From NCBI GenBank assembly GCA_001001285.1, contig LCKG01000003.1, positions 27,746 through 91,745 on the forward strand: a stretch of DNA of 64,000 nucleotides, given 5' to 3'. Numbering within the stretch: position 1 is the first letter of the stretch; each line of letters opens with the position of its first letter. The position numbers and the translations under genes were made by a program. The stretch comes from Parcubacteria group bacterium GW2011_GWC1_45_13 (GTDB lineage Bacteria > Patescibacteriota > Minisyncoccia > UBA11713 > 2-01-FULL-45-33). The notes beneath the pieces were generated by a model. The model did no database searches, was not told the origin of the DNA, and saw only the letters and a list, made by a program, of their open reading frames with translations. Positions 962 through 58,633 of the stretch are shown here, in pieces.

Positions 962-1377
962 AAAAACGAGGCGTAACTTTGCTTCTAGCTATATTTATTT
1001 CGTCTCTAGCTCTTGCTCTGAGCTTGGGAATTTTTACGATTATTTTCGGCGAACTAGGCATCTCCGGAACCTCTAAGGAATCTTTAGAAGCGTTTTACGC
1101 GGCCGATTCGGGCATAGAATGCGCGCTTTTTTGGGACATCAAACAGCAAGCGTTTTCTACTTCAACTTCCAATAATATAAGCTGCGCCGGCAATTCATTT
1201 TCCGTAGGCGGGTCTTTGCTTTCCATTTTTGACCTTAATTTATCCAGTAACTCCTGCGCGCATGTCCGACTCCAAAAAACCGGCTCGGAGACGATTATCA
1301 CGTCGCTTGGCGAGAACATCGCCTGCGGGCTCATAGGAAGCCGTACCGTGCAAAGAGGATTGGAAGTGAAATATTAA
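958..1377 (+). CDS. Pilin-like / pseudopilin-like protein (degenerate prepilin N-terminus)
   Basis: KKRGVTLLLAIFISSLALALSLGIF is a hydrophobic prepilin-like N-terminus. It overlaps the upstream stop by 4 nt, operon-like with the two preceding pilin genes. Confidence 0.5.
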   Translation: MKKRGVTLLLAIFISSLALALSLGIFTIIFGELGISGTSKESLEAFYAADSGIECALFWDIKQQAFSTSTSNNISCAGNSFSVGGSLLSIFDLNLSSNSCAHVRLQKTGSETIITSLGENIACGLIGSRTVQRGLEVKY

Positions 1378-1419
1378 GTTGAAACTCGGCGGATTTTGTG
1401 CTAGAATTAAGTCAATAAA

Positions 1420-3883: not shown

Positions 3884-4507
3884 ATGGATTTGCGGGAGAC
3901 ATACAATAAAATAGCGGAGGACTGGCATAAAGATCATAAACAGGATAATTGGTGGGTTGAGGGAACAAATGAATTTATCTCATTTTTAAAACCAAATAGT
4001 TTGGTGCTTGACGCTGGCTGCGGCGCCGGCACTAAATCTAAATATTTAATAGACAGAGGATTAAAAGTTGTCGGAATAGATTTTTCAGACAAGCTGATTG
4101 AAATAGCAAAAAGAGAAGCGCCTTCCGGAAACTTTTTTGTGATGGATATTAATGAAGCGGACAAACTGAAAGAAAATTTTGACGGGATTTTTGCGCAAGC
4201 GGTTTTACTGCATATTCAAAAAAAAGACGCGGAAAAAACATTAAATAAATTATTGGGCGTATTAAAACCCGGCGGATATTTATACATAGCAGTCAAAGAA
4301 AAAAAATTCGGCGGCGCGGATGAAGAAATAAAAACAGAAAACGACTACGGATATCCTTACGAAAGATTTTTCAGCTATTTTACTTTGGACGAAATAAAAA
4401 ATTTGATGATAGAGTTGGGATTGGCTATTAATTATGAAAATATATCTCAATACGGGTATACAAGATGGATACAGGTCATTGGGCAACAAAATAAAAATGG
4501 AAAATAA
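3884..4507 (+). CDS. Class I SAM-dependent methyltransferase
   Basis: Motif I VLDAGCGAGTKSKYL is followed by a VVGIDFS acidic loop. The gene is AT-rich. Confidence 0.8.
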   Translation: MDLRETYNKIAEDWHKDHKQDNWWVEGTNEFISFLKPNSLVLDAGCGAGTKSKYLIDRGLKVVGIDFSDKLIEIAKREAPSGNFFVMDINEADKLKENFDGIFAQAVLLHIQKKDAEKTLNKLLGVLKPGGYLYIAVKEKKFGGADEEIKTENDYGYPYERFFSYFTLDEIKNLMIELGLAINYENISQYGYTRWIQVIGQQNKNGK

Positions 4508-4844
4508 AAAATTTATTTTACGGATTAGATTGAGAGATAAATATATTTTTCAAGCAATTAAGAATGGTAACAAGAAAGTTGATACCAGAGCGGCGTCAAC
4601 TAGGAATCGTTCAATAAAAACTGGCGATAAACTCATTTTAATTTGCGGAAAAGAAAAAATTGAAAGAAAAGTAAAGGGAGTTAGAGTTTTTAAAACCATT
4701 TCGGCGCTTCTGAAGAAATATAAACCGCAACAAATCAATCCAAAAACATTTTCGGAGAAAGAAATAACAAAAATGTATTACAGTTTTCCCGGATACAAAG
4801 AAAAAATAAAAAAATACGGGTTGATTGTTATAGAATTGAAATAA
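4497..4844 (+). CDS. ASCH/PUA-like domain protein (hypothetical)
   Basis: About 115 aa from MENKKFIL… with basic, beta-rich ASCH-like features (GDKLILICGKEKI). Overlaps the MTase end by 11 nt. Very AT-rich. Start chosen at the internal ATG that matches the family length. Confidence 0.45.
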   Translation: MENKKFILRIRLRDKYIFQAIKNGNKKVDTRAASTRNRSIKTGDKLILICGKEKIERKVKGVRVFKTISALLKKYKPQQINPKTFSEKEITKMYYSFPGYKEKIKKYGLIVIELK

Positions 4845-8620: not shown

Positions 8621-9325
8621 TTGAATATGTTGTTAGAAAAAGAAAAAAGAAAATCAGGTAACGAAGCAATACGCGTTTTAATTTCCTTAAAAACAAAGAT
8701 TTTGCGTGATTTAAAGGAAGTTGTTAATGCTGGCGATTTTGATTACCGCACTTTTGGTACAGCCATTGAAAAGCATCTTACTGATATTATTGTCAGTATT
8801 TTTGAGAAAGCCGGTTTTATTAAAAATAATAAAGATTATATCGTTGCACCCCATAAAAATTATTTTCCAGATTTCGAACTAAAAACAGCGCCACCCATCG
8901 CTATTGAGTTTAAATCCGGGAATAGAAATCAAAATAGACAGGGTAAATGGGCGACGGTTAAAAATAGCGAGAATGATATGGGCACTCTTAATGAATGGCC
9001 CAAAAGAATTAAAAAATTCGGTGGTAAAAATATTTATTATATTTTTGTTATCTATAATTTTAGTGAGAAAACAAAACAAGTTCAAAATGTTGAAATCGCT
9101 CCGTTTTATGAATTTTTAGGTTTGAACAAGTCCAAGTTTATTAAATATCGAGAAAAAGATGGAAATTTGCGGCCCAAAAATTTTGATGCTAAGCCGCCCA
9201 TTAAAACTTTTGAGCAATTTGAACAATTAATCAACAAAACCGCCGTTTATAGATCCAGGCGAATTATTAAGAAGCACAGACAAATTATAAAGGATGTGCA
9301 GAATATTAAAAAAGGGATGGATTAA
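8621..9325 (+). CDS. Putative Type II restriction endonuclease (PD-(D/E)xK fold) – hypothetical
   Basis: …YFPDFELKTAPPIAIEFKSG… gives PD-x12-EFK, a PD-(D/E)xK-like catalytic signature. Convergent with the MTase gene, overlapping it by 20 nt. AT-rich. No recognisable family beyond the motif. Confidence 0.45.
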   Translation: MNMLLEKEKRKSGNEAIRVLISLKTKILRDLKEVVNAGDFDYRTFGTAIEKHLTDIIVSIFEKAGFIKNNKDYIVAPHKNYFPDFELKTAPPIAIEFKSGNRNQNRQGKWATVKNSENDMGTLNEWPKRIKKFGGKNIYYIFVIYNFSEKTKQVQNVEIAPFYEFLGLNKSKFIKYREKDGNLRPKNFDAKPPIKTFEQFEQLINKTAVYRSRRIIKKHRQIIKDVQNIKKGMD

Positions 9326-10868
9326 TTGGTTTACTATTCTGCTTTGTGCCGTAAGTTAATTTAGGATTATCTATAGGATAGATCCCTTCGTTCTCGGATA
9401 TAGTCAAATTTCTTAAATATTTTGATGCCGTTTCAGGCGCGTCGTTGTTATACTTATAACCATTACTTGAACGATAATTAACCTTTTTAAGTTTATCCGC
9501 AACGATTTTTTTATATTTTGGGTCTATATCAATACCAATATAATTTCGGCCTAGTCTTTTTGCTGCCAAAGCTGTTGTACCAGCACCGATAAATGGATCT
9601 AAAATAACATCGTTTTCATCTGTAGTCATAAGAACCAGACGTTCAAGTAATGGTTCGGGGAGTTGGCACGGATGAGCGTCCCTGCGCGTATTATGTCTTA
9701 TGCGATGTATATCCGCCCAAACATCGCTCAAAAGAGTCCCGTGCGGGTGTATTTGGCTTTTCTTGCCCCCATAGTCTTTAATCATTTCACCACAAGTTCG
9801 GCATTTTTTATGCGGCGATCTAAGTTCATGGAATTTAAATCCCTTGGGGGTTTTTGTATAAAATAGTATTCCATAGTGTGCTGGCAACAAAGTTTTTCCC
9901 AGAGGCGTACTCATTGAATCCCATGCTATCCAGTGTTTAAAGATAGCAATTTTGTTAAGATGGTTGGCATAATAAATTAACCACTTTGGTATATTGTGAA
10001 CCAAAATCGAACCCGTTGGTTTAGTTATTCTGACCATTTCGGTTAACCATTGCTCGCACCATTTTATATAATCCTCCGCAACCCTTTTATCTTTATAGTT
10101 TCCGTATTTTTTGTTTAGGTTAAATGGCGGGTCGGCAAAAGTCATATCAATTGAGTTATCGGGTATTTTTCTCATCTCCTCAATTGAATCTCCACACAAA
10201 ATTTCGTTTAATGGAAGTTTTTTGTATTGTTTTGTTTCAGTTTTGATTTCCGGAAAAATAATAGATATGGGCGTTTCCTCTCGAATAACATCTAGCACAA
10301 TCCCTTGAATAGCTACATCCCGCCCATTTCTGAAAATAAGAGGTTCCATATTTTTATTAGCCGGCTGTAAACGGATATATCCGTGCTCTTTATAGAATTT
10401 TTTTAAGGTTGCTTCGTGGTTATCTATAAGAGCTACTACTTTTTGCCCATTTTCGGCAGTTTCTTGTTGGCGCACCAAAACAACGTCGCCATCGTTGATA
10501 TTTTCATCAATCATACTATTCCCGACAACGCGGAGAGCATAAACCTCCGATGAGGAGGGAATTTTACTTTTCGGGACGGCTATGGTTTCTCTTTGTTCCT
10601 CAAATACATGGATTGGCTCACCGGCGGCTATTGTTCCCCATAAAGGAATTTTTACTAGCTTCTCCGACGAGGATATTTCAATGCCTCTTTTCTGATTTTT
10701 TTGCCGCTGTAAATAACCCTTATTTTGCAGTGCCATTAAATGTTGATGAATTGTGGATATAGCCAAGCCCATCCTTTGCCCCATTTCTTTAATGGAGGGC
10801 GCAAAGCCGCGCTTTTTGGTGTAGGAGGTTACAAAATCTAACACCTGTTTTTGCCTGGGGGTAAGCAT
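9306..10868 (-). CDS. LexA repressor (wHTH + S24 autopeptidase) fused to beta-class N6-adenine/N4-cytosine DNA methyltransferase
   Basis: LexA half (N-terminal ~200 aa): LTPRQKQVLDF…; Ala-Gly cleavage site in GTIAAGEP; LRVVGNSMIDENINDGDVVLV (nucleophile Ser); ATLKKF (general-base Lys); IQGIVLDVIR. MTase half (C-terminal ~320 aa): motif IV DMTFADPPF precedes motif I DPFIGAGTTALAAKRLGRNYIGIDID (beta-group order); CxxC…HPH insert. Single uninterrupted 520-aa ORF. Confidence 0.8.
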   Translation of the reverse strand: MLTPRQKQVLDFVTSYTKKRGFAPSIKEMGQRMGLAISTIHQHLMALQNKGYLQRQKNQKRGIEISSSEKLVKIPLWGTIAAGEPIHVFEEQRETIAVPKSKIPSSSEVYALRVVGNSMIDENINDGDVVLVRQQETAENGQKVVALIDNHEATLKKFYKEHGYIRLQPANKNMEPLIFRNGRDVAIQGIVLDVIREETPISIIFPEIKTETKQYKKLPLNEILCGDSIEEMRKIPDNSIDMTFADPPFNLNKKYGNYKDKRVAEDYIKWCEQWLTEMVRITKPTGSILVHNIPKWLIYYANHLNKIAIFKHWIAWDSMSTPLGKTLLPAHYGILFYTKTPKGFKFHELRSPHKKCRTCGEMIKDYGGKKSQIHPHGTLLSDVWADIHRIRHNTRRDAHPCQLPEPLLERLVLMTTDENDVILDPFIGAGTTALAAKRLGRNYIGIDIDPKYKKIVADKLKKVNYRSSNGYKYNNDAPETASKYLRNLTISENEGIYPIDNPKLTYGTKQNSKPINPSLF

Positions 10869-27124: not shown

Positions 27125-28906
27125 TTATTTTACCAGATTTTGTTTCCTCAATCTCACACTTTGAGGCGTTATTTCCAGATATTCGTCTTCGGACATAATT
27201 TCCAGCCCCCTTTCAATCGTCAAAAGATATGGAGGCGAAAGCGTGAGGGCTTCGTCCGAACTTTTGGAGCGCATGTTGGTGAGCTCTTTGCCTTTGGTCG
27301 GGTTCACAACCATTTCATCTCCTTTGGCCGTGTTGCCGATTACCATTCCTTTATAAATTTCAGTGCCCGGGCCAATGTAAAGCATTCCGCGGTCTTGCAA
27401 ACCCCAAAGAGAAAATCCTAACGCTTTGCCGTCGGCCATTGAGACCATGGAGCCGGCGGAGCGTTTTTTAATTTCTCCTTTCATCGGTCTAAAACCTACA
27501 ACATGCGACGCGAAAATTCCTTCGCCCTTGGTATCTATGATGAATTGATTTCGGTAACCCAGAATTCCGCGGGTCGGCCCTTCCAAAGAAAGCCGGACTA
27601 TATTTTCTTTGTTAAAAAGATTTGTCAAAATAAATCCGCGCCCTCCCAAGCGCTCAATAATCGCTCCCTGATGTTTCGCGGGCGCGTCAATTATCACCTC
27701 TTCGTACGGCTCGTAGACCTCGTCATCATTTTCCTTATGTAAAATGACCTGCGGTTGCGAAACCTGAAGCTCGTAGCCGGCTCTCCGCATATTTTCCAAA
27801 AGTATCGCAATGAGGAGCTCGCCTCTGCCCGAAACTTTGAAAATATCCAGCCCAAAATCAATTTTGAGTCCTACGTTCACCTCAAGCTCGCGCTCCAAAT
27901 ATTCCCTAATCTGGCGCGAGGTGACAAATTTTCCCTCTCTCCCTCCAAAGGGCGAATTATTTACTAAAAAATTAAGCGTGATGGTCGGCTCGTCTATTTT
28001 AATCGCCGGTAGCGCTTCCAAACTTTCATCTTTCATCACGGTTTCACCGATATAAATATCGGGAAGCCCGGCGACAAGCGCGATGTCTCCGGCGACTGCT
28101 TCTGACGCCTCAACGCGTTCCAAGCCGTTGAAAGTGAAAATTTTTGCGATCTTCCCAGGGCGCGTTCCGCCGTTTTTTATAAATATATTTTCTCCGGATT
28201 TTAAAATTCCTTCATAAACCCGGCCTACCGCGAGGCGCCCCAAAAAATTATCGTAGCCTAAATTAAACGGCTGAAAGCGCAGTGGTTTTTCAACCAAAAT
28301 TACGGACGAAGCCGATGGCACATGTTTTAAAATCGTTTCTAAAAGGGGAGTGAGGTCAGAAGATTCGTCTTCCAGTTTTAATTTCGCGATGCCCGCTTTG
28401 CCATTTGCGTAAATTACCGGAAAATTTGCCTGCTCGTCGGACGCTCCCAATTCCAAAAAAAGTTCCAAAACCTGCTCTTCGCATTTGGCGGGGTCAGCCG
28501 CCGGTTTGTCTATTTTATTTATTATCACAATCGGCTTTAAACCGAGCTCCAGAGATTTTTTTAAAACAAATCTTGTCTGCGGCATCGGCCCCTCCTGCGC
28601 GTCCACCACCAAAAGCACGGAATCAATTGCCCTAAGCACGCGCTCCACCTCCGAGCCGAAATCCGCGTGCCCGGGAGTGTCCACAATATTTATTTTTGTC
28701 GAAGATTGCGAAAATCCCGAGCTTGTCGAGGTATACATAATCGCAGCATTTTTTGAATAAATTGTAATCCCGCGCTCAAGCTCCAGAGCGTTTGAATCCA
28801 TAGACACGCCCTCTTTCGCCACTCCGGTTTGCCGCAAAAGCGCGTCGGTAAGAGTTGTCTTCCCGTGGTCAACATGGGCGATTATCGCTATGTTTCTGAT
28901 TTCCAT
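27125..28906 (-). CDS. typA: Translational GTPase TypA/BipA
   Basis: NIAIIAHVDHGKTTLTDALL…DTPGHADF…NKID with the BipA-type C-terminal domain. 593 aa. Confidence 0.9.
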   Translation of the reverse strand: MEIRNIAIIAHVDHGKTTLTDALLRQTGVAKEGVSMDSNALELERGITIYSKNAAIMYTSTSSGFSQSSTKINIVDTPGHADFGSEVERVLRAIDSVLLVVDAQEGPMPQTRFVLKKSLELGLKPIVIINKIDKPAADPAKCEEQVLELFLELGASDEQANFPVIYANGKAGIAKLKLEDESSDLTPLLETILKHVPSASSVILVEKPLRFQPFNLGYDNFLGRLAVGRVYEGILKSGENIFIKNGGTRPGKIAKIFTFNGLERVEASEAVAGDIALVAGLPDIYIGETVMKDESLEALPAIKIDEPTITLNFLVNNSPFGGREGKFVTSRQIREYLERELEVNVGLKIDFGLDIFKVSGRGELLIAILLENMRRAGYELQVSQPQVILHKENDDEVYEPYEEVIIDAPAKHQGAIIERLGGRGFILTNLFNKENIVRLSLEGPTRGILGYRNQFIIDTKGEGIFASHVVGFRPMKGEIKKRSAGSMVSMADGKALGFSLWGLQDRGMLYIGPGTEIYKGMVIGNTAKGDEMVVNPTKGKELTNMRSKSSDEALTLSPPYLLTIERGLEIMSEDEYLEITPQSVRLRKQNLVK

Positions 28907-29006
28907 AAAAAAATTGCCTCGTCCGCCAACTGGCGGAAGGCTTTTTTATACTACACTAAAAATTAAAATAGGTCAAATCTAAAAAAAGCCCGAGCTAGGC
29001 GCTGGG

Positions 29007-29390
29007 CTATGAGTGCTTACCGTATTTTTCGAGGTAAGGCATAAAAAATTTCTGAGGAATAAAAACTGGGTCGCCGCTTGGCATAGTAGCTATGGCCATA
29101 CAAATGTATTTTTCGCCCTGCGCGCTACTCGGGCCGCCTTCACGCTTGAGTTTTTCAATTTGACGCTTGAGTTCTTCAACGGCGGCGCGTATCACACTTC
29201 CCAGCCTGCCGCAGGCTTTGTAATGAACCTTCGGGTCTTGTTCTTTCCACCCGGTCCCTACAAACACATAGAAAATAAGATTTCCGGCGCGGTTTAGGTA
29301 GTCAAGGTCTTTTTTTATATCCAAGGCCTCTTTCCGATGCTTCCTCAATTTTCTCTCAAGCTCTTTTCTTATCATCCTTCTTACTGACAT
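29007..29390 (-). CDS. Hypothetical protein
   Basis: 127-aa ORF with a basic N-terminus. No recognisable domain. Confidence 0.45.
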   Translation of the reverse strand: MSVRRMIRKELERKLRKHRKEALDIKKDLDYLNRAGNLIFYVFVGTGWKEQDPKVHYKACGRLGSVIRAAVEELKRQIEKLKREGGPSSAQGEKYICMAIATMPSGDPVFIPQKFFMPYLEKYGKHS

Positions 29391-29542
29391 AGCCGCACCT
29401 CCATTTCTGCCTAAAACTTAGCGTTTATTTGATTTTTAGTCAAGCCGGAGCTTTCCTTCTCTCCGCCAAAAATTTCTTATCTGCCGCCAGCCCAATTCCC
29501 CGCTTCGCCCCAGTAATAACAACGAATTCGTAATAAAAATAG

Positions 29543-29773
29543 TTATCCAAGTTTAACTAGAAATAGAGTTACCAATACCAACGCTATGGTTGCTAAAGCG
29601 AGCACTCTTGACCAAATTAATTGTTTTCTATTGTACTCTTTCTGAGAATCTAAAAGTTCCTTTTGTAATTTGTAATTAATAAAGACCGCTCCTATACGAA
29701 TCATTTCGGGAACGCTATTATTTATTTTCTCTAACATTTCCTCCAACGACTGCTTTGTGTTGAAAATTCCCAT
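29543..29773 (-). CDS. Hypothetical small membrane protein
   Basis: 76 aa with a C-terminal TM helix. Confidence 0.4.
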   Translation of the reverse strand: MGIFNTKQSLEEMLEKINNSVPEMIRIGAVFINYKLQKELLDSQKEYNRKQLIWSRVLALATIALVLVTLFLVKLG

Positions 29774-29832
29774 ACCTTTATTTTAATCTAGTAATTGTCG
29801 CATTTGCATTCGAACCGACGCTACCCCCACCC

Positions 29833-29858
29833 TAGCTCAAAATCGCCGGGGTTTCAAG
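29833..29858 (+). repeat. Cassette-boundary repeat copy A (TAGCTCAAAATCGCCGGGGTTTCAAG)
   Basis: 26/26 identical to 31086..31111. Located just 3' of the toxin gene on the minus strand. Confidence 0.7.
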
Positions 29859-29866
29859 GCGATGTA

Positions 29867-30130
29867 TTAAGAAGAATACAGTTTGCTGTGTGTATCTACG
29901 GCTATAAAATATGCGATTTCTTTTTCTGCCATTTCATAAATTGCGCGCAAACCGCCCCCAACATTTATACTGCGCAACCCTTCGCATTTACCTTGCAGTG
30001 GATGATTATTTAATACAGGATTAAATGGATTTTCAATAAATACCGCCAATTGTTCCTTAAATTTATTTTGCTGACTTTTGCGCAGTTTTTTAAATTGCCT
30101 TTTAAAATTTTTATGAAATACTACCTTCAT
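29867..30130 (-). CDS. Type II toxin YafQ/RelE-family mRNA interferase
   Basis: 87 aa: …LNNHPLQGKCEGLRSINVGGGLRAIYEM…IAVDTHSKLY is the RelE/YafQ fold signature. 4-nt overlap with the upstream antitoxin. Confidence 0.7.
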   Translation of the reverse strand: MKVVFHKNFKRQFKKLRKSQQNKFKEQLAVFIENPFNPVLNNHPLQGKCEGLRSINVGGGLRAIYEMAEKEIAYFIAVDTHSKLYSS

Positions 30131-30402
30131 TTTCCGTGAAGATACCGCGCGGCACTTTCCGCGATGCCAAAAGCGGGGGAGACGTTTTTCTTCCTCGCGT
30201 AATCACTGCGCGCTTCTTTGGCAATATTTTCTAAATAAGATGTCATATTTGGCGCGACAGAAAATCTTATTTCCTGTTCTCTAACAAGTTGCCTTAACTG
30301 GGCATTTATGACCGCGCTAAGCGAGAGCCCCATCTCTTTGGCGATTTTTTTGGCTTCGTCTTTGACCTTTTGATCGGTTTTAATGTTAATTACTGTGTTC
30401 AT
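30127..30402 (-). CDS. Type II antitoxin DinJ/RelB family
   Basis: 91 aa with a ribbon-helix-helix N-terminus INIKTDQKVKDEAKKIAKEMGLSLSAVINAQL. Confidence 0.7.
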   Translation of the reverse strand: MNTVINIKTDQKVKDEAKKIAKEMGLSLSAVINAQLRQLVREQEIRFSVAPNMTSYLENIAKEARSDYARKKNVSPAFGIAESAARYLHGK

Positions 30403-30457
30403 GCATTAAGTATATATCCTATATACACAATGTCAATACCTCGTATTTGTGGATATC

Positions 30458-30530
30458 ATCGCCAGGATTTCAAGCTTGCCTGCCCCGCCTACCGGCAGGC
30501 AGGCGGCAAGCGGGGCGAGGGGGGTTATTT
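30458..30530 (+). repeat. Cassette-boundary repeat copy B with GC-rich hairpin
   Basis: ATCGCCAGGATTTCAAGCTTGCCT…ACCGG matches copy C. The extra CCTGCCCCGCC…GGCGGCAAGCGGGG imperfect palindrome overlaps the GNAT 3' end. Confidence 0.6.
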
Positions 30531-31082
30531 CCCCTTTTTATATTCGCGGTCTAAAATGCCAAAATTTAAAACGTCGTGCCATTGGTTTTCCCGCCACCAT
30601 TTTTCGCGCGTCCGACCTTCCAGTTTGAATCCGAATTTTTTCAAAACTTTCTGCGAGGCAATATTTTTGTGGAAAGTGTTCGCATAAACTCTGTGAAATT
30701 TCCATTTTTTAAACACCAAATCCAAAACAAGCCCGACTGCCTCTGTTGCTATTTCGCGCCCCCAATATTTTTTACCGAGCCAATATCCCAGCTCGACATT
30801 GTTGTTTCCCTTGTCTATTTTGTGCATGCCAATGCCGCCAATAACTTTATTAGTGGTTTTCAACGCGATACCAAAAGCCGCATCTTTTTTGGTTTTGCGA
30901 TATCTAGATATTTTTTTGAAGAAATTTAAGGCATCCCGTTTTGAGTAAGGGTGAGGAATGTTTGTCATAAAACGCACAATATTTTTGTCGTTTATATTAT
31001 TTTGCAAATCTTCCGCGTCAGATTTCCGAAGTTCTCGTACAATAATTTGTTTTCCGATTAGTTTGGTTGGCATATTATACAA
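30525..31082 (-). CDS. GNAT family N-acetyltransferase (RimJ/RimL-like)
   Basis: …NVELGYWLGKKYWGREIATEAVGLVLDLVFKKWKFHRVYANTFHKNIASQKVLKKFGFKLEG matches the acetyl-CoA binding motifs A/B. Confidence 0.8.
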   Translation of the reverse strand: MYNMPTKLIGKQIIVRELRKSDAEDLQNNINDKNIVRFMTNIPHPYSKRDALNFFKKISRYRKTKKDAAFGIALKTTNKVIGGIGMHKIDKGNNNVELGYWLGKKYWGREIATEAVGLVLDLVFKKWKFHRVYANTFHKNIASQKVLKKFGFKLEGRTREKWWRENQWHDVLNFGILDREYKKGK

Positions 31083-31085
31083 TTT

Positions 31086-31140
31086 TAGCTCAAAATCGCC
31101 GGGGTTTCAAGCTTGCCTACCGGTAGATCTCGGCGAGGAG
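31086..31140 (+). repeat. Cassette-boundary repeat copy C (head of A + tail of B)
   Basis: TAGCTCAAAATCGCCGGGGTTTCAAG followed by CTTGCCTACCGGTAG, immediately 5' of the GNAT start codon. Confidence 0.65.
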
Positions 31141-31277
31141 AGCGGGATTTGAGGAAGAAGCCGAAGCGGTTAATTACCAATATTATCGTCCGCCAAAAGG
31201 CGACTCATTTGGGTAGCAGACAGCCAGTAAGACCGCTTCACGGGCATCAAGTTGCGAGACCGCGCTTGGTGCCTTTT

Positions 31278-32525
31278 TTATTTCCTGAAAAATCCGCTGC
31301 GGCCGCCGTAGGACGGGCGCGCAAGGCCGCGGCCGAAGCGTTTGTGCGAAAAATGCCGCGGGATGATTTTGTATTCTATGAATTTTTCTTCCGAAAATTC
31401 CGGGTGTTTGGATATCGCAATCACTGTGCGAAGAAGCTTTTCAATATCGCGAACGGCGCTTTTTTGGTCGGGCGTCGCGAAAGATATCGCCCGCCCAGGC
31501 GCGCCGGCCCGTCCGGTGCGCCCTATCCGGTGGACATAATCTCCTGGATTATCCGGCAAGTCGTAATTAAGAACAAGTTCAATCCCCACAACGTCGATTC
31601 CGCGGGAGGCAATGTCGGTTGCCACAAGCACGCGGTATCTTCCGGACTTAAATCCATCCAGCGCCTCCCGGCGTTGGATGAGCGAGCGGTTGGAATGGAT
31701 CTCGGCGACCCTATGCCCCATATCTCTCACGGCGTTGCATATTTTTCTTGCGCCGTGCTTGGTGCGGGAAAAAATCAAAACCGACCCGCGGTATTCGACA
31801 AGAAGCTTTGTGAGTAATTTATTTTTATCTTCTTTTTTTACGATAAATAATTCTTGTGCTACCTTCTCCGCGGCCGTCCCCGGGCGGGCAATCTCAATCC
31901 GGAAGGGGAGCTTCATGTGCTCTGTTGCCAAGCGCACGATGTTGTCTGGCATTGTCGCCGAAAAAAGCATGGTTTGCCGGTTTTTCGGGACTTTATTTAA
32001 AATTTGTTTTAATTGCGGTAGAAATCCCATATCCAGCATTCTGTCGGCTTCATCCAAAACCAGTATTGAAATGCCGTCCAAAGAAAGCACTCTTTGTTCC
32101 ATGTGATCAATAATCCGCCCTGGTGTTCCTATTATAATGTGGGGCTGGCGGCGAAGCGCGTCTATTTGTGGGCGCATGGACGCGCCTCCTATAATAAGCG
32201 CTGTTTTGAGGCCAAGGTTCCGGCCGATTTTTTGCAGCATTTCTTCCACTTGTTGCGCCAGCTCCCTTGTCGGCAAAAGAATCAGCCCCTTGGCTTTTGT
32301 CTGGGCAATGCGCTGGATCATTGGGACGCCGAATGCCAAAGTTTTGCCAGTGCCGGTTTGCGCCACGCCGATTAAGTCCTTTCCTTCAATCGCGGCAGGG
32401 ATCGCGCGCGATTGTATCGGCGTAGGCGTTTTGAAACGGAGTTTTCCAAGAATTTCCAAAAGCGCCGGGGCGATGCCCAAACCGTAAAAACTCTTGGTTA
32501 TGTTTTCGCTAGCGCGTTGATTCAT
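31278..32525 (-). CDS. DEAD-box ATP-dependent RNA helicase
   Basis: Q-motif, AQTGTGKT, PTRELA, DEAD (VLDEADRM), SAT, HRIGRTGR. Gly/Arg-rich C-terminal tail. Confidence 0.9.
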   Translation of the reverse strand: MNQRASENITKSFYGLGIAPALLEILGKLRFKTPTPIQSRAIPAAIEGKDLIGVAQTGTGKTLAFGVPMIQRIAQTKAKGLILLPTRELAQQVEEMLQKIGRNLGLKTALIIGGASMRPQIDALRRQPHIIIGTPGRIIDHMEQRVLSLDGISILVLDEADRMLDMGFLPQLKQILNKVPKNRQTMLFSATMPDNIVRLATEHMKLPFRIEIARPGTAAEKVAQELFIVKKEDKNKLLTKLLVEYRGSVLIFSRTKHGARKICNAVRDMGHRVAEIHSNRSLIQRREALDGFKSGRYRVLVATDIASRGIDVVGIELVLNYDLPDNPGDYVHRIGRTGRAGAPGRAISFATPDQKSAVRDIEKLLRTVIAISKHPEFSEEKFIEYKIIPRHFSHKRFGRGLARPSYGGRSGFFRK

Positions 32526-33193: not shown

Positions 33194-33215
33194 GTTTGGG
33201 CTCAAGCTTTCCGGC

Positions 33216-33347
33216 TTATTTAATCTGTTTCCAGAGCCAGACTATGAGCATAATCCCGACGACAAGCCAGACCAGCTCGCTTATCCAGCCGAACGCACTC
33301 CCGTATCCGCCTCCCCAGCCCATCATGTTTCCGTAGTAATTCATCAT
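33216..33347 (-). CDS. Small Gly/Trp-rich membrane peptide (43 aa), hypothetical
   Basis: MMNYYGNMMGWGGGYGSAFGWISELVWLVVGIMLIVWLWKQIK. The terminator lies directly downstream. Not in the ORF track, which lists an overlapping plus-strand ORF instead. Confidence 0.35.
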   Translation of the reverse strand: MMNYYGNMMGWGGGYGSAFGWISELVWLVVGIMLIVWLWKQIK

Positions 33348-33447
33348 TGGTTTATAGTAACACTAAACTACTATGAAGTCGAAGTGCCGACCTCTTTGAT
33401 ACTTTTTATTTTATCTATTTTGATGCTCTTCGGATGGATAGCGGATA

Positions 33448-33729
33448 TTAAAAGAAAATAAAACTAATCAGCCAAGCAATTCCTCCACTACCAATAGAAA
33501 GAATGCCAAACATGACGATGGCGGATGTATTCACAAAATTTGCTTCTCCTCGTATGAGGTTTCCACTCATACTCGCCATTTTCCCGATAAAAGCTAATAG
33601 CAATCCAATTAGTATCCCCACGACGGCACCAAATATAGAGCCGGCATTGATAGTAAACCCAAAAGCTAAACCCCATAATAAACCACTGACAGCCCCGATA
33701 AGGGCACTGAAAATAATGTTTGCAAACAT
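33448..33729 (-). CDS. Hypothetical glycine-zipper membrane protein
   Basis: 93 aa with GxxxG repeats across about 3 TM helices. Confidence 0.5.
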   Translation of the reverse strand: MFANIIFSALIGAVSGLLWGLAFGFTINAGSIFGAVVGILIGLLLAFIGKMASMSGNLIRGEANFVNTSAIVMFGILSIGSGGIAWLISFIFF

Positions 33730-33778
33730 AGTTTTATTTTATCACAGCGACGCTTCTCGGAACATGTAAACAATATAT

Positions 33779-34573
33779 TTATCTAAGAATTAGCTTTTCA
33801 ATACTATCGATTATTTGAATCGGGTCGCCTGTTAAGATCTTGTTGTCATATAAATCTTTGGTAAAAGCTAAACATATTTTTACTGCTTCTGTCGCAACAA
33901 AATCACCATCATCTCCGTCATGAAAAAATATCTTTCCATATTCATCTTTCCCAATAAATTCTTGAAATCCTTCAATATTCAAATGAGCTACTGGCGATAA
34001 CTGTCTATAGATCAAACTATACATACGTTCAAAATGTCCTTTTTCGGAGTTTTTTACTTCTTCTTTTTCGCACAATTTAGCTTTTTCTTGAAGAGACTTA
34101 GTACCTTTAAGGTCTGGATTGCCTTTTAAAATTGCTTCTTTGTGAATTTTTTGGTCACCAATAGCTCGTTCTAAGTATTTTTTATTGAACAATTGTTCTT
34201 GATTTGTAGATTCGAGGTTTGGATATCTTTTTATCAGATTCAGTATTTCCTCCAATATTGTTATTCGTTCACAAAACATTCTTTTTGCTGAAAAAGCGAG
34301 TCTTTGCTCAGAATTTCCAAACTGATGATAGATAATGTCTATGTGGGCTTCAAATAGCGCTCTAAGTAAAACTTTGGCTACATGAGATTTTCTATTTTCA
34401 CATAAAATTATTATTGATTCAGTAAAACTGAATACTGGGTGGTGAGCAAAATATATATAATTTTGCAAATGAGTATGCCTGCTAGTATCGATATTGTTAA
34501 GCAGATCCTTGATTTCTATTTTCAGCTTCAAAAATTTTTTCTTTAGTTTTCTTATGTATTCTGCTTTTTCCAT
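33779..34573 (-). CDS. Hypothetical protein (possible HEPN-like Rx5H motif)
   Basis: 264 aa. Contains LLRALFEAHIDIIYH (R-x5-H). AT-rich. No firm family assignment. Confidence 0.5.
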   Translation of the reverse strand: MEKAEYIRKLKKKFLKLKIEIKDLLNNIDTSRHTHLQNYIYFAHHPVFSFTESIIILCENRKSHVAKVLLRALFEAHIDIIYHQFGNSEQRLAFSAKRMFCERITILEEILNLIKRYPNLESTNQEQLFNKKYLERAIGDQKIHKEAILKGNPDLKGTKSLQEKAKLCEKEEVKNSEKGHFERMYSLIYRQLSPVAHLNIEGFQEFIGKDEYGKIFFHDGDDGDFVATEAVKICLAFTKDLYDNKILTGDPIQIIDSIEKLILR

Positions 34574-34602
34574 ACGTATTTAAAGCTCCTTGAAGTCCGA
34601 AC

Positions 34603-34860
34603 CTATCTCAAGCTGTTTTTATTTATTAAATTTAATTTCTTCTCTCTGCGCCAGCCTTTTATTTCGGTTTCACGGCGGCGAGCTTCTTTTAAAGTGGTAA
34701 ATTTTTCAAAATAACGCAATACCACCGGACGCCTTAGTTTTGTAAAATGCGCGCCCCATTTGGAATTATTGTGTTGTTCTAGTCTTCTTTCTAAATTATT
34801 TGTGCAACCAACGTAAAAAGATTTATCGGCGCACTCTAAAATATAAGTGAAATAAAACAT
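34603..34860 (-). CDS. GIY-YIG nuclease superfamily protein (YhbQ-like) paralog 2
   Basis: FYFTYILECADKSFYVGCTNNLERRLEQHN… 85 aa. Confidence 0.75.
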   Translation of the reverse strand: MFYFTYILECADKSFYVGCTNNLERRLEQHNNSKWGAHFTKLRRPVVLRYFEKFTTLKEARRRETEIKGWRREKKLNLINKNSLR

Positions 34861-34939
34861 ATTTTTTTGGTATCTCTTCGTCGTTAAAACTCCTCAGAGC
34901 CTTCTTCGCTCTGTTTTAAATGTCGAAGATCCTGATGAG

Positions 34940-34998
34940 CGAAGCGAAGAAGGGCTGCGGGACTAGGATTCGGACCTAGATTACACGGTTCAGAGCCG
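34940..34998 (-). pseudogene. Degenerate tRNA-Gln-like 3' fragment (anticodon arm CUG + T-arm + acceptor 3' strand)
   Basis: Minus strand reads CACGG-CTCTGAA-CCGTG TAATC CTAGG-TCCGAAT-CCTAG TCCCGCA G. The T-loop has C at position 55 and no D-stem partner, so it is a fragment. Confidence 0.4.
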
Positions 34999-34999
34999 T

Positions 35000-35040
35000 G
35001 CGCCCCAGCCTTTTCGGCGGGTCGCCGAGGAGGCGACTAC
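35000..35040 (-). repeat. 41-nt direct repeat X, copy 2 (two small hairpins: TCGCC-N5-GGCGA and CCCGCC-GAAAA-GGC(T)GGG)
   Basis: About 36/41 identical to 35422..35462. Both copies are preceded on the minus strand by GGTAG. Confidence 0.6.
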
Positions 35041-35055
35041 CACTTCCGCACAAAA

Positions 35056-35126
35056 CTGGGAGGCCTGGATTCGAACCAGGGTTATGCGGTTCAGAGCCGC
35101 ATGTCCTACCGCTAGACGACCTCCCA
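35056..35126 (-). tRNA. tRNA-Gln (anticodon CTG)
   Basis: Reverse complement: TGGGAGG TC GTC TAGCGGTAG GAC A TGCGG-CTCTGAA-CCGCA TAACC CTGG-TTCGAAT-CCAGG CCTCCCA G. Flanked by a perfect 14-bp inverted repeat (35042..35055 and 35128..35141). Confidence 0.85.
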
Positions 35127-35145
35127 GTTTTGTGCGGAAGTCTTT

Positions 35146-35421
35146 TTACTCCATTAAATAATTTTTCAACTTACCTTTTAATACTTCTCTACCATATCCT
35201 GTTTTATAAAATTTTTCTCCGGTAGTTGCATCTTTCTTGTCTAAATACGCTTCATAATATATTAGTTTGAAAGGCCTGTTTTTACTGGAATATCCGCCGC
35301 CCTTGCCGGAGTTATGTTCTGATACTCTCTGTTTTAAATCTTCGGTAAAGCCAACATAATTTCGGCCGTTTTTCAAACTTTTTAATACATATACGTAAAA
35401 CATGATTTTTATTGAAGCCAT
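35146..35421 (-). CDS. GIY-YIG nuclease superfamily protein (YhbQ-like) paralog 3
   Basis: …MFYVYVLKSLKNGRNYVGFTEDLKQRVSEHN…FKLIYYE. The true start may be the second ATG (35403). Confidence 0.75.
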   Translation of the reverse strand: MASIKIMFYVYVLKSLKNGRNYVGFTEDLKQRVSEHNSGKGGGYSSKNRPFKLIYYEAYLDKKDATTGEKFYKTGYGREVLKGKLKNYLME

Positions 35422-35462
35422 GCGTCCCCGCCTTTTCGGCGGGTCGCCGATGAGGCGACTAC
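35422..35462 (-). repeat. 41-nt direct repeat X, copy 1, immediately 5' of GIY-YIG paralog 3
   Basis: See copy 2. Preceded (35459..35479 on minus) by a tRNA 5'-half-like sequence TGCGGGATCGTCTAACGGTAG. Confidence 0.6.
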
Positions 35463-35579
35463 CGTTAGACGATCCCGCAATAATGCGTATAATATGTAGA
35501 GGTTAGCAAAAAAATTTTGGTTTGACAAAGTTTAGACATTTGTTAATGTTTAAGTGGTTTTGATTTTTGGGAGGTGCGC

Positions 35580-50244: not shown

Positions 50245-50322
50245 ATGATTTGCTATAATAAATAAATGGCGAAAAAGAAACGGAATAACGGAAAAAATGG
50301 AGCGGGGATTGGGGCGTGGCAT
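50245..50322 (+). repeat. Duplicate of ftsK promoter + first 19 codons (about 94% identical to 51328..51405)
   Basis: TTTGCTATAAT(A/T)AAATAAATGGCGAAAAAGAAA…GGAGCGGGGATTGGGGCGTGGCAT is shared. Here the open frame MAKKKRNNGKNGAGIGAWHWA stops, and the PaaX-like ORF starts (GTG) inside the duplicated segment. Confidence 0.8.
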
Positions 50323-50816
50323 TGGGCTTAGCGGCTCATTCTCCTCGAAGGCGAAGAAGGGTGTTTAAAAATATACCTTTAGAATTTAACAAAATTGACC
50401 GGCGCGTTCTTCAACGCATTATACGCGAATTCCATCGCGATAGACTGGTAGATTTTAAGGAAGATGGGGATAACGGCGTTCGGATTATTCTTACAGAGCA
50501 GGGCGTCAAAAAGGCGTTGCGGTATAATATTGATGCCATCTTTATTGAAGAGCCTAAAAAATGGGATGGAAAATGGAGGATCGTGGTTTTTGATATTCCG
50601 GAAAAAATGAAAAAGGCTCGCGAGGCGCTGCGTGACAAACTGCGCAAACTCGGTTTTTATCAACTTCAAAAAAGCGTTTTTGTTTTCCCCTTCGCGTGCC
50701 ATGATGAAATAAATTTTATTGTTGAATTTTTTGAATTACGCTCCAATGTCCGCATTATGACCGTGTTGGACATTACTAATGAAGCCGAACTAAAATTGCA
50801 TTTTGGGCTTTCTTAA
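50316..50816 (+). CDS. PaaX-like transcriptional regulator family protein (paralog 1, N-terminally remodelled)
   Basis: wHTH (RVLQRIIREFHRDRLVDF) plus KWDGKWRIVVFDIPEKMKKAREALRDKLRKLGFYQLQKSVFVFP (the PaaX C-domain WDGKW motif). GTG start. Confidence 0.6.
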   Translation: MALGLAAHSPRRRRRVFKNIPLEFNKIDRRVLQRIIREFHRDRLVDFKEDGDNGVRIILTEQGVKKALRYNIDAIFIEEPKKWDGKWRIVVFDIPEKMKKAREALRDKLRKLGFYQLQKSVFVFPFACHDEINFIVEFFELRSNVRIMTVLDITNEAELKLHFGLS

Positions 50817-58066: not shown

Positions 58067-58633
58067 TTATAAATTAAACAGTTTTTTCATATGCAGTTCG
58101 TTATCAATTTCGTTAGCCGTAACGAATCTGACATAAGGCCTTACATTAAAAAACTCTATTATAAAATCAACTTCGTCTTTACATTCGAATGGATGAACAA
58201 ATACGCTTTTTTGGAATTTTATAAATCCGGCGTTTTTTAGCACTCTGGCAAAAGCGTCTCTAGCCCTTTTCATATTTTCCGGTATATCAAAAAGAACTAT
58301 GCGCCATTTTTTGTCCCACTTTTTCATTGGCTGTATTTTTAATTCATCAATTTGGTAAGTTAGAACTTTCTTTTTGCCGCGCTCGGTTAAAATAAGTGTT
58401 GTTGCGCCGTTTACGTTATCCACAACGTCTATGAGGCGAGAGCGGTACAAGCTTTTTATGGCATTGTAAAGCGCACGTCGTTCGATATTCTTCCATTCTT
58501 TTCCGATCATTCTTATAATTTTAAAGTATCGCTGCGGTGAATGCGTAAGCCCGAGCGCCAAACCGCCCCAGAGCAAAAGCATCACTTTTTGAGCAGTTGG
58601 GCCTATTCGCGGTTCTGAATAACGTTTTCGCAT
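58067..58633 (-). CDS. PaaX-like transcriptional regulator family protein (paralog 2)
   Basis: wHTH (RALYNAIKSLYRSRLIDV) plus KKWDKKWRIVLFDIPENMKRARDAFARVLKNAGFIKFQKSVFVHP. Confidence 0.65.
   Translation of the reverse strand: MRKRYSEPRIGPTAQKVMLLLWGGLALGLTHSPQRYFKIIRMIGKEWKNIERRALYNAIKSLYRSRLIDVVDNVNGATTLILTERGKKKVLTYQIDELKIQPMKKWDKKWRIVLFDIPENMKRARDAFARVLKNAGFIKFQKSVFVHPFECKDEVDFIIEFFNVRPYVRFVTANEIDNELHMKKLFNL

Follow-up and report, generated by a model that had tools for sequence, protein, structure and literature searches.

A dyad-symmetric repeat of about 27 bp at the boundaries of a DinJ-YafQ toxin-antitoxin unit in Candidatus Giovannonibacteria: a possible recombination site of small mobile modules

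How does a toxin-antitoxin (TA) pair come to lie between two copies of one short repeat, with a third copy in front of the neighbouring gene? The question is raised by the interval between the genes for a DEAD-box helicase and TypA/BipA in a 64-kb stretch of DNA (the window, that is the whole stretch that was analysed). Its host, from groundwater, is a member of Candidatus Giovannonibacteria, a lineage of the Candidate Phyla Radiation (CPR)/Patescibacteria, as judged from the helicase homologues. An earlier note on this DNA had described a DinJ-YafQ pair and a GNAT gene, each bounded by copies of a composite repeat (A, B and C), and had likened the array to integron cassettes. In this study, we find that A, B and C share a sequence of ~27 bp, here called S. 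We propose that S marks the boundaries of small mobile TA modules and that the DinJ-YafQ unit was inserted into a copy of S by recombination between two S sites (S x S), a reading that we put forward tentatively and whose chances we place a little below even. It builds on what was observed directly: the repeats and the module boundaries in the window, a second locus where the module is again bracketed by S and of which an empty allele exists, the presence of S behind TA modules of two unrelated types, and a resident version of the module that is free of S. The features of the locus are given here in the direction of transcription; L103 is the second locus and L117 the closest relative.

31114..31277, no strand assigned: spacer from the DEAD helicase stop to S1, 164 bp, unique, missing in L117
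31086..31113, minus strand: S1, repeat C, full-length S with the coding-strand sequence AGCTTGAAACCCCGGCGATTTTGAGCTA; promoter scan 10/12 for TTGAAA-17 nt-TAAAAT
30525..31082, minus strand: GNAT gene, RimJ/RimL-like acetyltransferase (Pfam Acetyltransf_3, E 5e-32)
30479..30520, minus strand: G+C-rich hairpin, left flank of B, 6 nt past the GNAT stop; RNA fold -33 kcal/mol, z -2.2
30451..30476, minus strand: S2, core of repeat B, left junction of the TA unit, homologous to the upstream junction S4 of L103
30409..30436, minus strand: TA promoter TTGACA-16-TATACT, 11/12 in the promoter scan, ~20 nt beyond B
30127..30402, minus strand: antitoxin of the RelB/DinJ family (Pfam RelB 29.1 bits, cut-off 22.4), overlapping the toxin gene by 4 nt
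29867..30130, minus strand: toxin of the YafQ/RelE-ParE family (Pfam YafQ_toxin 34.6 bits, cut-off 30), with 72 homologues found
29827..29860, minus strand: S3, repeat A, right junction of the TA unit (GCCTTGAAACCCCGGCGATTTTGAGCTAGGGTGG), 6 nt past the toxin stop
29827..30475, minus strand: TA unit S-DinJ-YafQ-S, 649 bp, delimited by homology with L103 3207-3859
29543..29773, minus strand: open reading frame (ORF) of 76 aa downstream of A, with a C-terminal hydrophobic segment and no Pfam match

Gene identities were assigned by Pfam. The DEAD-box helicase gene (31278-32525) lies upstream, the 76-aa ORF, a 127-aa ORF and TypA/BipA lie downstream, and all are on the minus strand. Repeat C is located 5' of GNAT and ends ~9 nt before the ATG at 31073, B separates GNAT from the TA pair, and A follows the toxin gene. 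As the earlier note had stated, both the TA pair and GNAT are minus-strand units with a repeat at the 3' end, A behind the toxin and B behind GNAT. The region had also been called AT-rich, which is true to a modest degree (40.8% GC in 29400-31277 vs 45.1% for the window). The DinJ-YafQ proteins are standard members of type II TA systems, and the unusual part is the bracketing repeat. The TA promoter overlaps the inverted repeat GTATATA-GGA-TATATAC, which from its sequence is likely the operator and is kept in L103 and in the resident-type loci described below.

A (29833-29858) agrees with the head of C (31086-31111) in every position (26/26, repeat family D12), the same figure as reported before, and the number of exact 26-mer pairs expected by chance in 64 kb is ~5e-7. 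The 17-nt core ATCGCCGGGGTTTCAAG has three occurrences in the window when as many as three mismatches are allowed (29842, 30458 and 31095), all on one strand; 0/100 shuffles gave three such matches. B and C agree at 24/27 positions (30458-30484 and 31095-31121, repeat family D14). The tail of C had been said to match the whole of 30458-30520. The similarity is confined to roughly the first 27-35 nt of that interval, and beyond it, leftward on the coding strand, the alignment needs a 7-nt indel (CCGGTAGGC[GGGGCAG]GCAAGC). Likewise, the description of C as a recombinant junction of A-type and B-type sites is correct in that its left part is as in B and its right part as in A, but C is best read as a solo, unsplit S.

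Named from C and written on the coding (minus) strand, S is AGCTTGAAA-CCCCGGCGA-TTTTGAGCTA, ~27 bp, and its general form is AGCTTGAAA-CCCCGGCGA-TTTTGAGCT(A). The arms AGCTTGAAA and TTTTGAGCT form an imperfect inverted repeat (7/9, or 9/9 with G:T pairs), so that 9-10-bp arms flank a centre of 7-9 nt. B keeps the left arm and the centre (AGCTTGAAATCCTGGCGAT), and its right arm is replaced by GATATCC. All copies in the window and at L103 are in direct orientation. Within a locus the centre is nearly constant (A equals C, B differs by 2, and S4 and S5 of L103 differ by 2), whereas it varies from locus to locus. The two nucleotides before TTGAAA are CC in A, in the downstream copy of L103 and in the copy at locus L098, all of which follow a toxin gene and precede a small hydrophobic ORF; they are GC in C, in B, in the upstream copy of L103 and also in the copy after a RelE-like toxin at loci L016/L017. 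When a profile of S was searched with nhmmer over ~300 kb of Giovannonibacteria DNA, the significant matches were these TA-associated sites only, with C at E 4e-8.

Evidence for mobility of the unit comes from its second locus. A homologue of the toxin (P0121, 92% protein identity) is encoded between HIT and hisS (L103-L108). In a global alignment the TA units of the window and L103 (649 vs 653 bp) show 90.4% DNA identity. The homology begins exactly at GCTTGAAA (30475) and stops at GCTAGGGT[G/A]G (29827), and the flanks are 39-46% identical, which is background. At L103 the upstream S (S4) reads CGCTTGAAAATCCGTCAATTTCGATGCC and the downstream S (S5) ACCTTGAAAATCCGCCGATTTTAAGCTAGGGTAG, and the unit is bracketed by a direct repeat of its own, CTTGAAAATCCG[T/C]C[A/G]ATTT (17/19). 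An empty allele of this locus was found on L106, a chimeric contig whose first 523 nt, from a co-occurring strain, have the hisS stop abutting the HIT start. Thus, the whole 1391 bp between hisS and HIT in L103 are inserted DNA, and S did not pre-exist there. This insertion holds both copies of S, the TA pair, a 68-aa ORF and a tRNA. The tRNA (4455-4526, plus strand) scores 41 bits with Rfam and was missed by ARAGORN. The toxin homologues at 77-80% identity all occur in one locus of several Giovannonibacteria species, Lactamase_B / TA / S1-domain protein, with no S on either side of the module, and we read this locus as the resident version of the TA module.

A third context was considered and rejected. 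In L102, a 1160-bp contig from the Joint Genome Institute (JGI), hisS-rpmE-prfA' runs into the final 60 nt of the window's toxin gene, followed by A and the 76-aa ORF, and the window-derived part is 100% identical to the window. An assembly chimera is the probable explanation, since GAAATGGCAGAAAAAGAAAT, where the two parts meet, is plausible for both genes, although a real rearrangement is possible.

S is also found behind TA modules of other types. It lies 2-32 nt past the toxin stop in three of them: YafQ (window and L103), Fic/Doc (L098) and RelE-like (L016/L017). Past the stop of the RelE-like toxin, AGCTTGAACCCACGGCGACTTTGAGCT comes after 2 nt, directly before the TypA promoter, both in L016/L017 and in four contigs from metagenomes, and has no -10 element of any kind in L016/L017; this toxin is 28% identical to that of the window and has a different antitoxin. 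In L098, from Hainich groundwater, GCCTTGAAACCTCGGCGATTTTGAGCTAGGGTGGGAG lies 32 nt past a Fic/Doc toxin gene that is paired with a helix-turn-helix (HTH) antitoxin, and a small hydrophobic ORF without homology to the 76-aa ORF of the window follows. The small membrane-type ORFs after S differ among the window, L098 and L103. To its left, S has three unrelated toxins or the G+C hairpin, to its right GNAT, TypA, the TA promoter or one of three non-homologous small ORFs; therefore, both edges of S are homology breakpoints. In L016 (~9960-10030, compared with L017 1227-1470), a ~230-bp internal deletion joins the 3' end of the antitoxin gene to the last codons of the RelE-like toxin, with S downstream intact, and by its sequence this TA module is decayed with the junction sequence kept. 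Further pattern matches in L018, L096 and L099 were taken as chance: the surrounding sequence is unrelated, and one of them comes from a Clostridiales genome.

Is GNAT a cassette as well? We compared the interval from the DEAD helicase to FtsX (the convergent FtsX-FtsE-PrfB side) between the window and relatives with 85-90% identical helicases:

Window: GNAT, TA pair, 76-aa ORF, 127-aa ORF, TypA
L117 (closest relative, 90%): GNAT after 17 nt and, 150 nt beyond it, TypA, within which the contig stops short of FtsX
L016: Obg, NADAR, decayed TA, TypA, FKBP
L012: 118-aa and 181-aa ORFs, including a homologue of the 127-aa ORF of the window
L014, L015, L118: no genes between the DEAD helicase and FtsX

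The interval is a hot spot of variable content, with gene content that differs between the same conserved flanking genes (six versions, counting the window and five relatives). S, the TA pair and both the 76-aa and the 127-aa ORF are missing from L117. Compared with it, the window carries 190 additional bp upstream of GNAT, in which C lies, and ~1.55 kb extra downstream, from the B hairpin to the 127-aa ORF. The GNAT genes themselves are 80% identical at the DNA level, and the neighbouring genes 82% and 84%. Since GNAT occupies the same DEAD-GNAT-TypA position in L117 without any repeat, it belongs to the resident genes of this sub-lineage, and nothing demonstrates that it is a cassette. The earlier claim that the repeats mark cassettes therefore holds for the TA pair, which is absent from L117 and has a second S-bracketed locus with an empty allele, but not for GNAT. 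Judging from sequence, C is probably a solo S within the lineage-specific 190-bp insert that now serves as the GNAT promoter. Helicase and GNAT proteins were found on many contigs of the Rifle groundwater metagenomes.

Some further observations concern this interval. The 164-bp spacer between the DEAD helicase gene and C contains a short palindrome, CTACCGGTAG, and a left flank resembling that of B, and it had no homology to any fetched sequence. The plus strand of the DEAD-GNAT spacer (31100-31290) folds with -65 kcal/mol (z -2.1; minus strand z -0.9), and the fold ends in a terminator-like stem GGCAUCAAG..CUUGGUGCC followed by UUUUUU, with no Rfam match; the folded strand might act as a small antisense RNA or as a terminator in both directions. 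In the TypA leader (28915-28945, minus strand), a hairpin with a U run behind it immediately precedes the start codon (GCCTTCCGCCAGTTGGCGGACGAGGC-AATTTTTTT); it is conserved in L016 and L117 and looks like an attenuator, and a 17-nt look-alike lies in the DEAD-GNAT spacer (31186-31202, repeat family D6). In L012 (complete genome CP066687), an 82-nt direct repeat (8802-8883 / 9447-9528, 95% identical) brackets the 181-aa ORF; it is unrelated to S and has an imperfect palindrome of its own. One partial copy without an ORF lies at ~8240-8290 of L015.

How could the TA unit have entered? Under S x S recombination, the 649-bp DinJ-YafQ module, which has its own autoregulated promoter, would have entered a copy of S downstream of the resident GNAT by a conservative exchange between S on a circular module and S in the chromosome. 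The left junction (B, upstream copy of L103) would then consist of the chromosomal left arm and centre with a module-specific right side, and the right junction (A, downstream copy of L103) of the left edge of the module, seen as CC instead of GC before TTGAAA, with the intact chromosomal right arm. The centre would be common to both junctions, and C would be a complete S that was not split. Because both junctions hold the left arm and the centre, these are duplicated as a 17-nt direct repeat. The similarity of centres within a locus would be expected if partner sites exchange in the centre. The catalyst would be an unlinked site-specific recombinase acting in trans, for which the tyrosine type is favoured because arms of 9-10 bp surround a variable centre of ~7 bp; RecA acting on short homology would be the main alternative enzyme. 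The proposal predicts a circular junction ..TAATACATCGCCTTGAAA.CC.GGCGATGATATCCACAAATACG.. and an empty site ..GGCAAGCTTGAAA.CC.GGCGATTTTGAGCTAGGGTGGGGG.., or more fully a circular TA module with ..TCTTCTTAATACATCGCCTTGAAA[C/T]CC[C/T]GGCGATGATATCCACAAATACGAGG.. and an empty site with ..GGGGCAGGCAAGCTTGAAA[C/T]CC[C/T]GGCGATTTTGAGCTAGGGTGGGGGTAGCG.., and deletion between C and A would leave ..CCGGTAGGCAAGCTTGAAACCCCGGCGATTTTGAGCTAGGGTGGGGG...

Several results weigh against this proposal. Pfam searches of 39 ORFs of the window for recombinase domains, and the gene tables of related loci, revealed no recombinase gene; in agreement with the earlier note, none of the 39 ORFs has a Phage_integrase domain. 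The duplicated lengths differ (17-26 nt), and the right arm of B is decayed. All 11 fetched loci of the window's population are 99.8-100% identical and carry the full array, so there is no cassette polymorphism within this population, and neither a polymorphic site nor a circular junction was seen among these 11 contigs. About five independent contexts of S are known. A pattern scan of species-representative genomes, with a narrow pattern, found S in one other Giovannonibacteria genome only. From the 82-nt repeat of L012, it seems that brackets can also be made by a general process of duplication or short homology, with no need of an enzyme specific for S. Finally, S fits a promoter, so its conservation may be partly regulatory, and the gyrA promoter of the window (1376-1408, plus strand; AAGTTGAAACTCGGCGGATTTTGTGCTAGAAT) is similar to S (28 matches over 34 columns with 3 gaps).

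Most of these points can be gathered into an alternative that we regard as possible, although clearly on the unlikely side: S is a promoter or regulatory module, in which a hairpin terminator is followed by TTGAAA-17-TAnnnT, the brackets arose by Campbell-type RecA recombination, illegitimate recombination or slippage, and the S-TA-S block was moved by horizontal transfer. The layout is of the sigma-70 type (TTGAAA, 17 nt, then TAAAAT in C or TAGGGT in A), C scores well in the promoter scan at the right distance from the GNAT start, and A points at the 76-aa ORF. The hexamers TTGAAA-17/18-TAGGGT are kept in A, L098 and the downstream copy of L103. RecA is encoded in the window, no recombinase was found, and the unrelated repeat of L012 brackets an ORF in the same hot spot. 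The relatives' gyrA promoters have the T-tract+TGCTAnAAT part only in common with that of the window. However, conservation of S is highest in the -35 element and the spacer and lower in the -10 element, which is lacking in B, in the upstream copy of L103 and in L017. The spacer is conserved among loci with unrelated neighbours, which implies shared descent or selection on the spacer itself, and S follows three unrelated TA modules. A homology of 17-20 nt is short for RecA, and promoter-like matches in the region are not commoner than in shuffles.

The other alternatives fare worse than this one. In the first, S is a dif-like site and the TA unit is an integrative mobile element exploiting Xer (IMEX) or a dif module moved by the host Xer recombinases. 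S has the size (~27 bp), dyad symmetry and variable centre for this, its centres are nearly identical within a locus, as for reacting pdif sites (PMC13141974), TA modules are the commonest cargo of dif modules (PMC13141974), and the window encodes an FtsK with a gamma domain. Nevertheless, we consider it quite improbable: S lacks the Xer consensus (a core of the ATAA-N6-TTAT type), its copies are direct, unlike the pdif sites on the two sides of a module, which are inverted (PMC13141974), the window has no terminus-type GC-skew switch, S occurs at several chromosomal loci, and there is no xer gene in the window.

Still a little less probable is a derivative of an HUH/Y1 single-strand transposon, either a palindrome-associated transposable element (PATE) of the IS200/IS605 kind or an element like the repetitive extragenic palindromes (REPs) and their associated tyrosine transposases (RAYTs), with similar direct hairpins at both ends. 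The same imperfect palindrome does lie in direct orientation at both ends of the unit, and the G:T-type mismatches would make the hairpin strand-specific. Against this, the hairpins have very little stability (DNA folds of -0.7 to -3.3 kcal/mol, with z about 0), the two insertion sites have no common target tetranucleotide and their flanks share nothing. The left end begins at the hairpin foot, while that of IS200/IS605-type elements is usually ~16-19 nt before it. The copy number is very low (3 in 64 kb, at one locus), and no TnpA was seen.

An integron cassette array, or a cluster of attC sites lacking an integrase (CALIN), with A, B and C as attC and IntI elsewhere in the genome, is very improbable. 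The co-oriented genes with a repeat 3' of each were the basis of this reading in the earlier note; in addition, the TA pair, like TA cassettes, brings its own promoter, and TA pairs and acetyltransferases are typical annotated cassette content in Vibrio arrays (PMC3856429). However, GTTRRRY/RYYYAAC motifs are absent from both strands of 29800-31300 (0 by regular expression vs ~3 expected by chance), and A, C and the reconstructed undivided site reach z -0.3 to +1.2 in folding, which is no better than shuffles. When B was folded, as had been suggested, it gave a plain G+C-rich stem without the R/L box layout. At ~27 bp, S is far below the usual attC length of 57-141 bp. There is no IntI in the window, and GNAT is syntenic without repeats in L117. 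The claim of attC-like sites was therefore abandoned.

About as improbable is integration by staggered cuts in the manner of casposons or CRISPR spacers, in which nicks beside a short palindromic target duplicate the left arm and centre of S. A 17-20-nt duplication flanks the insert, its sequence tracks the local site rather than the module, and the window encodes two Cas2-like (PaaX_M) domain proteins, but these are regulators by annotation, no Cas1 or casposase was seen, and the CC left edge of A, L098 and the downstream copy of L103, as opposed to GC in the upstream-type copies, fits an exchange of arms better. The two proteins (50316-50816, plus strand, and 58067-58633, minus strand) carry the central Cas2-like domain of PaaX, and no other CRISPR components were seen in the window.

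Ordinary intrinsic terminators or chance similarity, the reading that had been named as a refutation of the cassettes, is the least probable of all and can be taken as refuted: a strong hairpin, partly common to the left flank of C in the alignment and with no U run after it, stands just past the GNAT stop at B, and a 6-bp stem (ATCGCC/GGCGAT) with TTTTG behind it is possible at A, but no terminator was called on the coding strand at A, B or C, the stem of A is not kept in C, B, L098 or L017, the chance expectation is as low as given above, and S recurs at module boundaries in other genomes.

A few other ideas were tried and set aside. A tRNA-fragment origin of the flank of A (TTCGAAT motif) found no support, with neither a tRNA call at that place nor pairing between the arms. 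Rfam gave no match in 28700-31500 at E up to 5, and four tRNAs only in the whole window. A phage or plasmid origin was rejected: the S pattern had 0 matches in viral contigs, the antitoxin had no relative there, and the region had no blastn match in a plasmid collection. A looser 15-nt pattern of S gave 76 matches in viral contigs, which were taken as chance uninspected. A long hairpin, with the left flank of C (TCCCGCTCT) pairing with the right flank of A (AGGGTGGG) as in L098, was dropped since the folds are not significant. Finally, a likeness of S to the half-sites of Hin/Gin hix (TTCTTGAAAACC..) was set aside, as the spacing is one nt off and S has no 2-bp symmetric centre.

The window has further features apart from this locus. 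A 520-aa ORF (9306-10868, minus strand) fuses a complete LexA (LexA_DNA_bind and Peptidase_S24) to an N6/N4 DNA methyltransferase domain, an unusual combination, and lies in a low-GC stretch (36-37% GC at 8-12 kb). tRNA-Gln (35055-35127, minus strand) lies within a perfect 22-bp inverted repeat (35042-35063 / 35120-35141); a partial tRNA-like copy, 75% identical to it, is found at 34955-34998, and a 48-nt repeat, 92% identical, occurs nearby at 34994-35041 and 35416-35463. Beside it, 33200-34950 has 31-37% GC, encodes DUF5677 and a small GIY-YIG protein, and may be an island inserted at tRNA-Gln.

If S x S recombination holds, the system behind it could be a cassette system that has not been described before, in which TA modules and possibly other small genes are moved by an unlinked recombinase acting on a dyad site of ~27 bp that doubles as an outward promoter, in Giovannonibacteria and perhaps other CPR bacteria; this wider claim is a doubtful one, though worth considering. 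Gene gain and loss in the very small genomes of CPR/Patescibacteria are little known, and few mobile elements have been defined there. S would offer a short, searchable marker of gene flux that travels with TA modules, and it is a candidate recombinase substrate. Should S work as an outward promoter too, the insertions would not be polar, and it would be easier to understand how TA modules settle inside compact operons. If the brackets instead stem from short-homology recombination, the locus still shows clearly how conserved genes of an uncultivated lineage can enclose a hot spot of variable content.

How does this compare with known systems? The TA genes resemble other type II DinJ-YafQ pairs of the RelB/RelE superfamily in that the antitoxin comes first, the genes overlap by 4 nt, both proteins score above the Pfam cut-offs and the promoter holds a palindromic, likely operator. 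In Neisseria, minimal mobile elements consist of a conserved gene pair that encloses strain-variable content, and dRS3 and the Neisseria intergenic mosaic elements (NIME) are short repeats with terminal inverted repeats that act as integration targets. Here, the DEAD helicase and FtsX would correspond to the conserved pair, and short repeats likewise stand at the junctions, but the sequences are unrelated, and the Neisseria elements move by transformation and homologous recombination in the conserved flanks, with no duplication of a junction repeat. IMEX such as CTX/TLC and the gonococcal genetic island also have no integrase of their own, duplicate a ~28-bp site with one good and one degenerate copy, and form tandem arrays. 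However, they sit at the single dif site of the replication terminus, whereas there is no terminus skew here and S is found at several loci. With the sedentary chromosomal integron cassettes that carry TA or acetyltransferase genes, the locus shares co-oriented ORFs, a recombination-site-like repeat at each 3' end, a TA cassette with its own promoter, a module found in different places, and a composition of C that matches a hybrid of two sites; it differs in the missing IntI, R'/R'' cores and attC fold, in the ~27-bp site and in a GNAT gene that is not mobile.

The nearest conceptual analogue are the dif modules of Acinetobacter (pdif, XerC/XerD), which are small, very often encode TA systems, are bounded by 28-bp sites and are exchanged between sites that share spacers (PMC13141974). 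In both cases small TA modules without a recombinase of their own are bounded by dyad-symmetric sites of ~28 bp. Unlike S, which is direct and lies in a CPR chromosome, pdif sites are inverted, follow the Xer consensus and reside on Rep_3 plasmids. The cassette system proposed here would be analogous in function to integron cassettes and dif modules, with an unrelated site sequence and a direct orientation of its sites.

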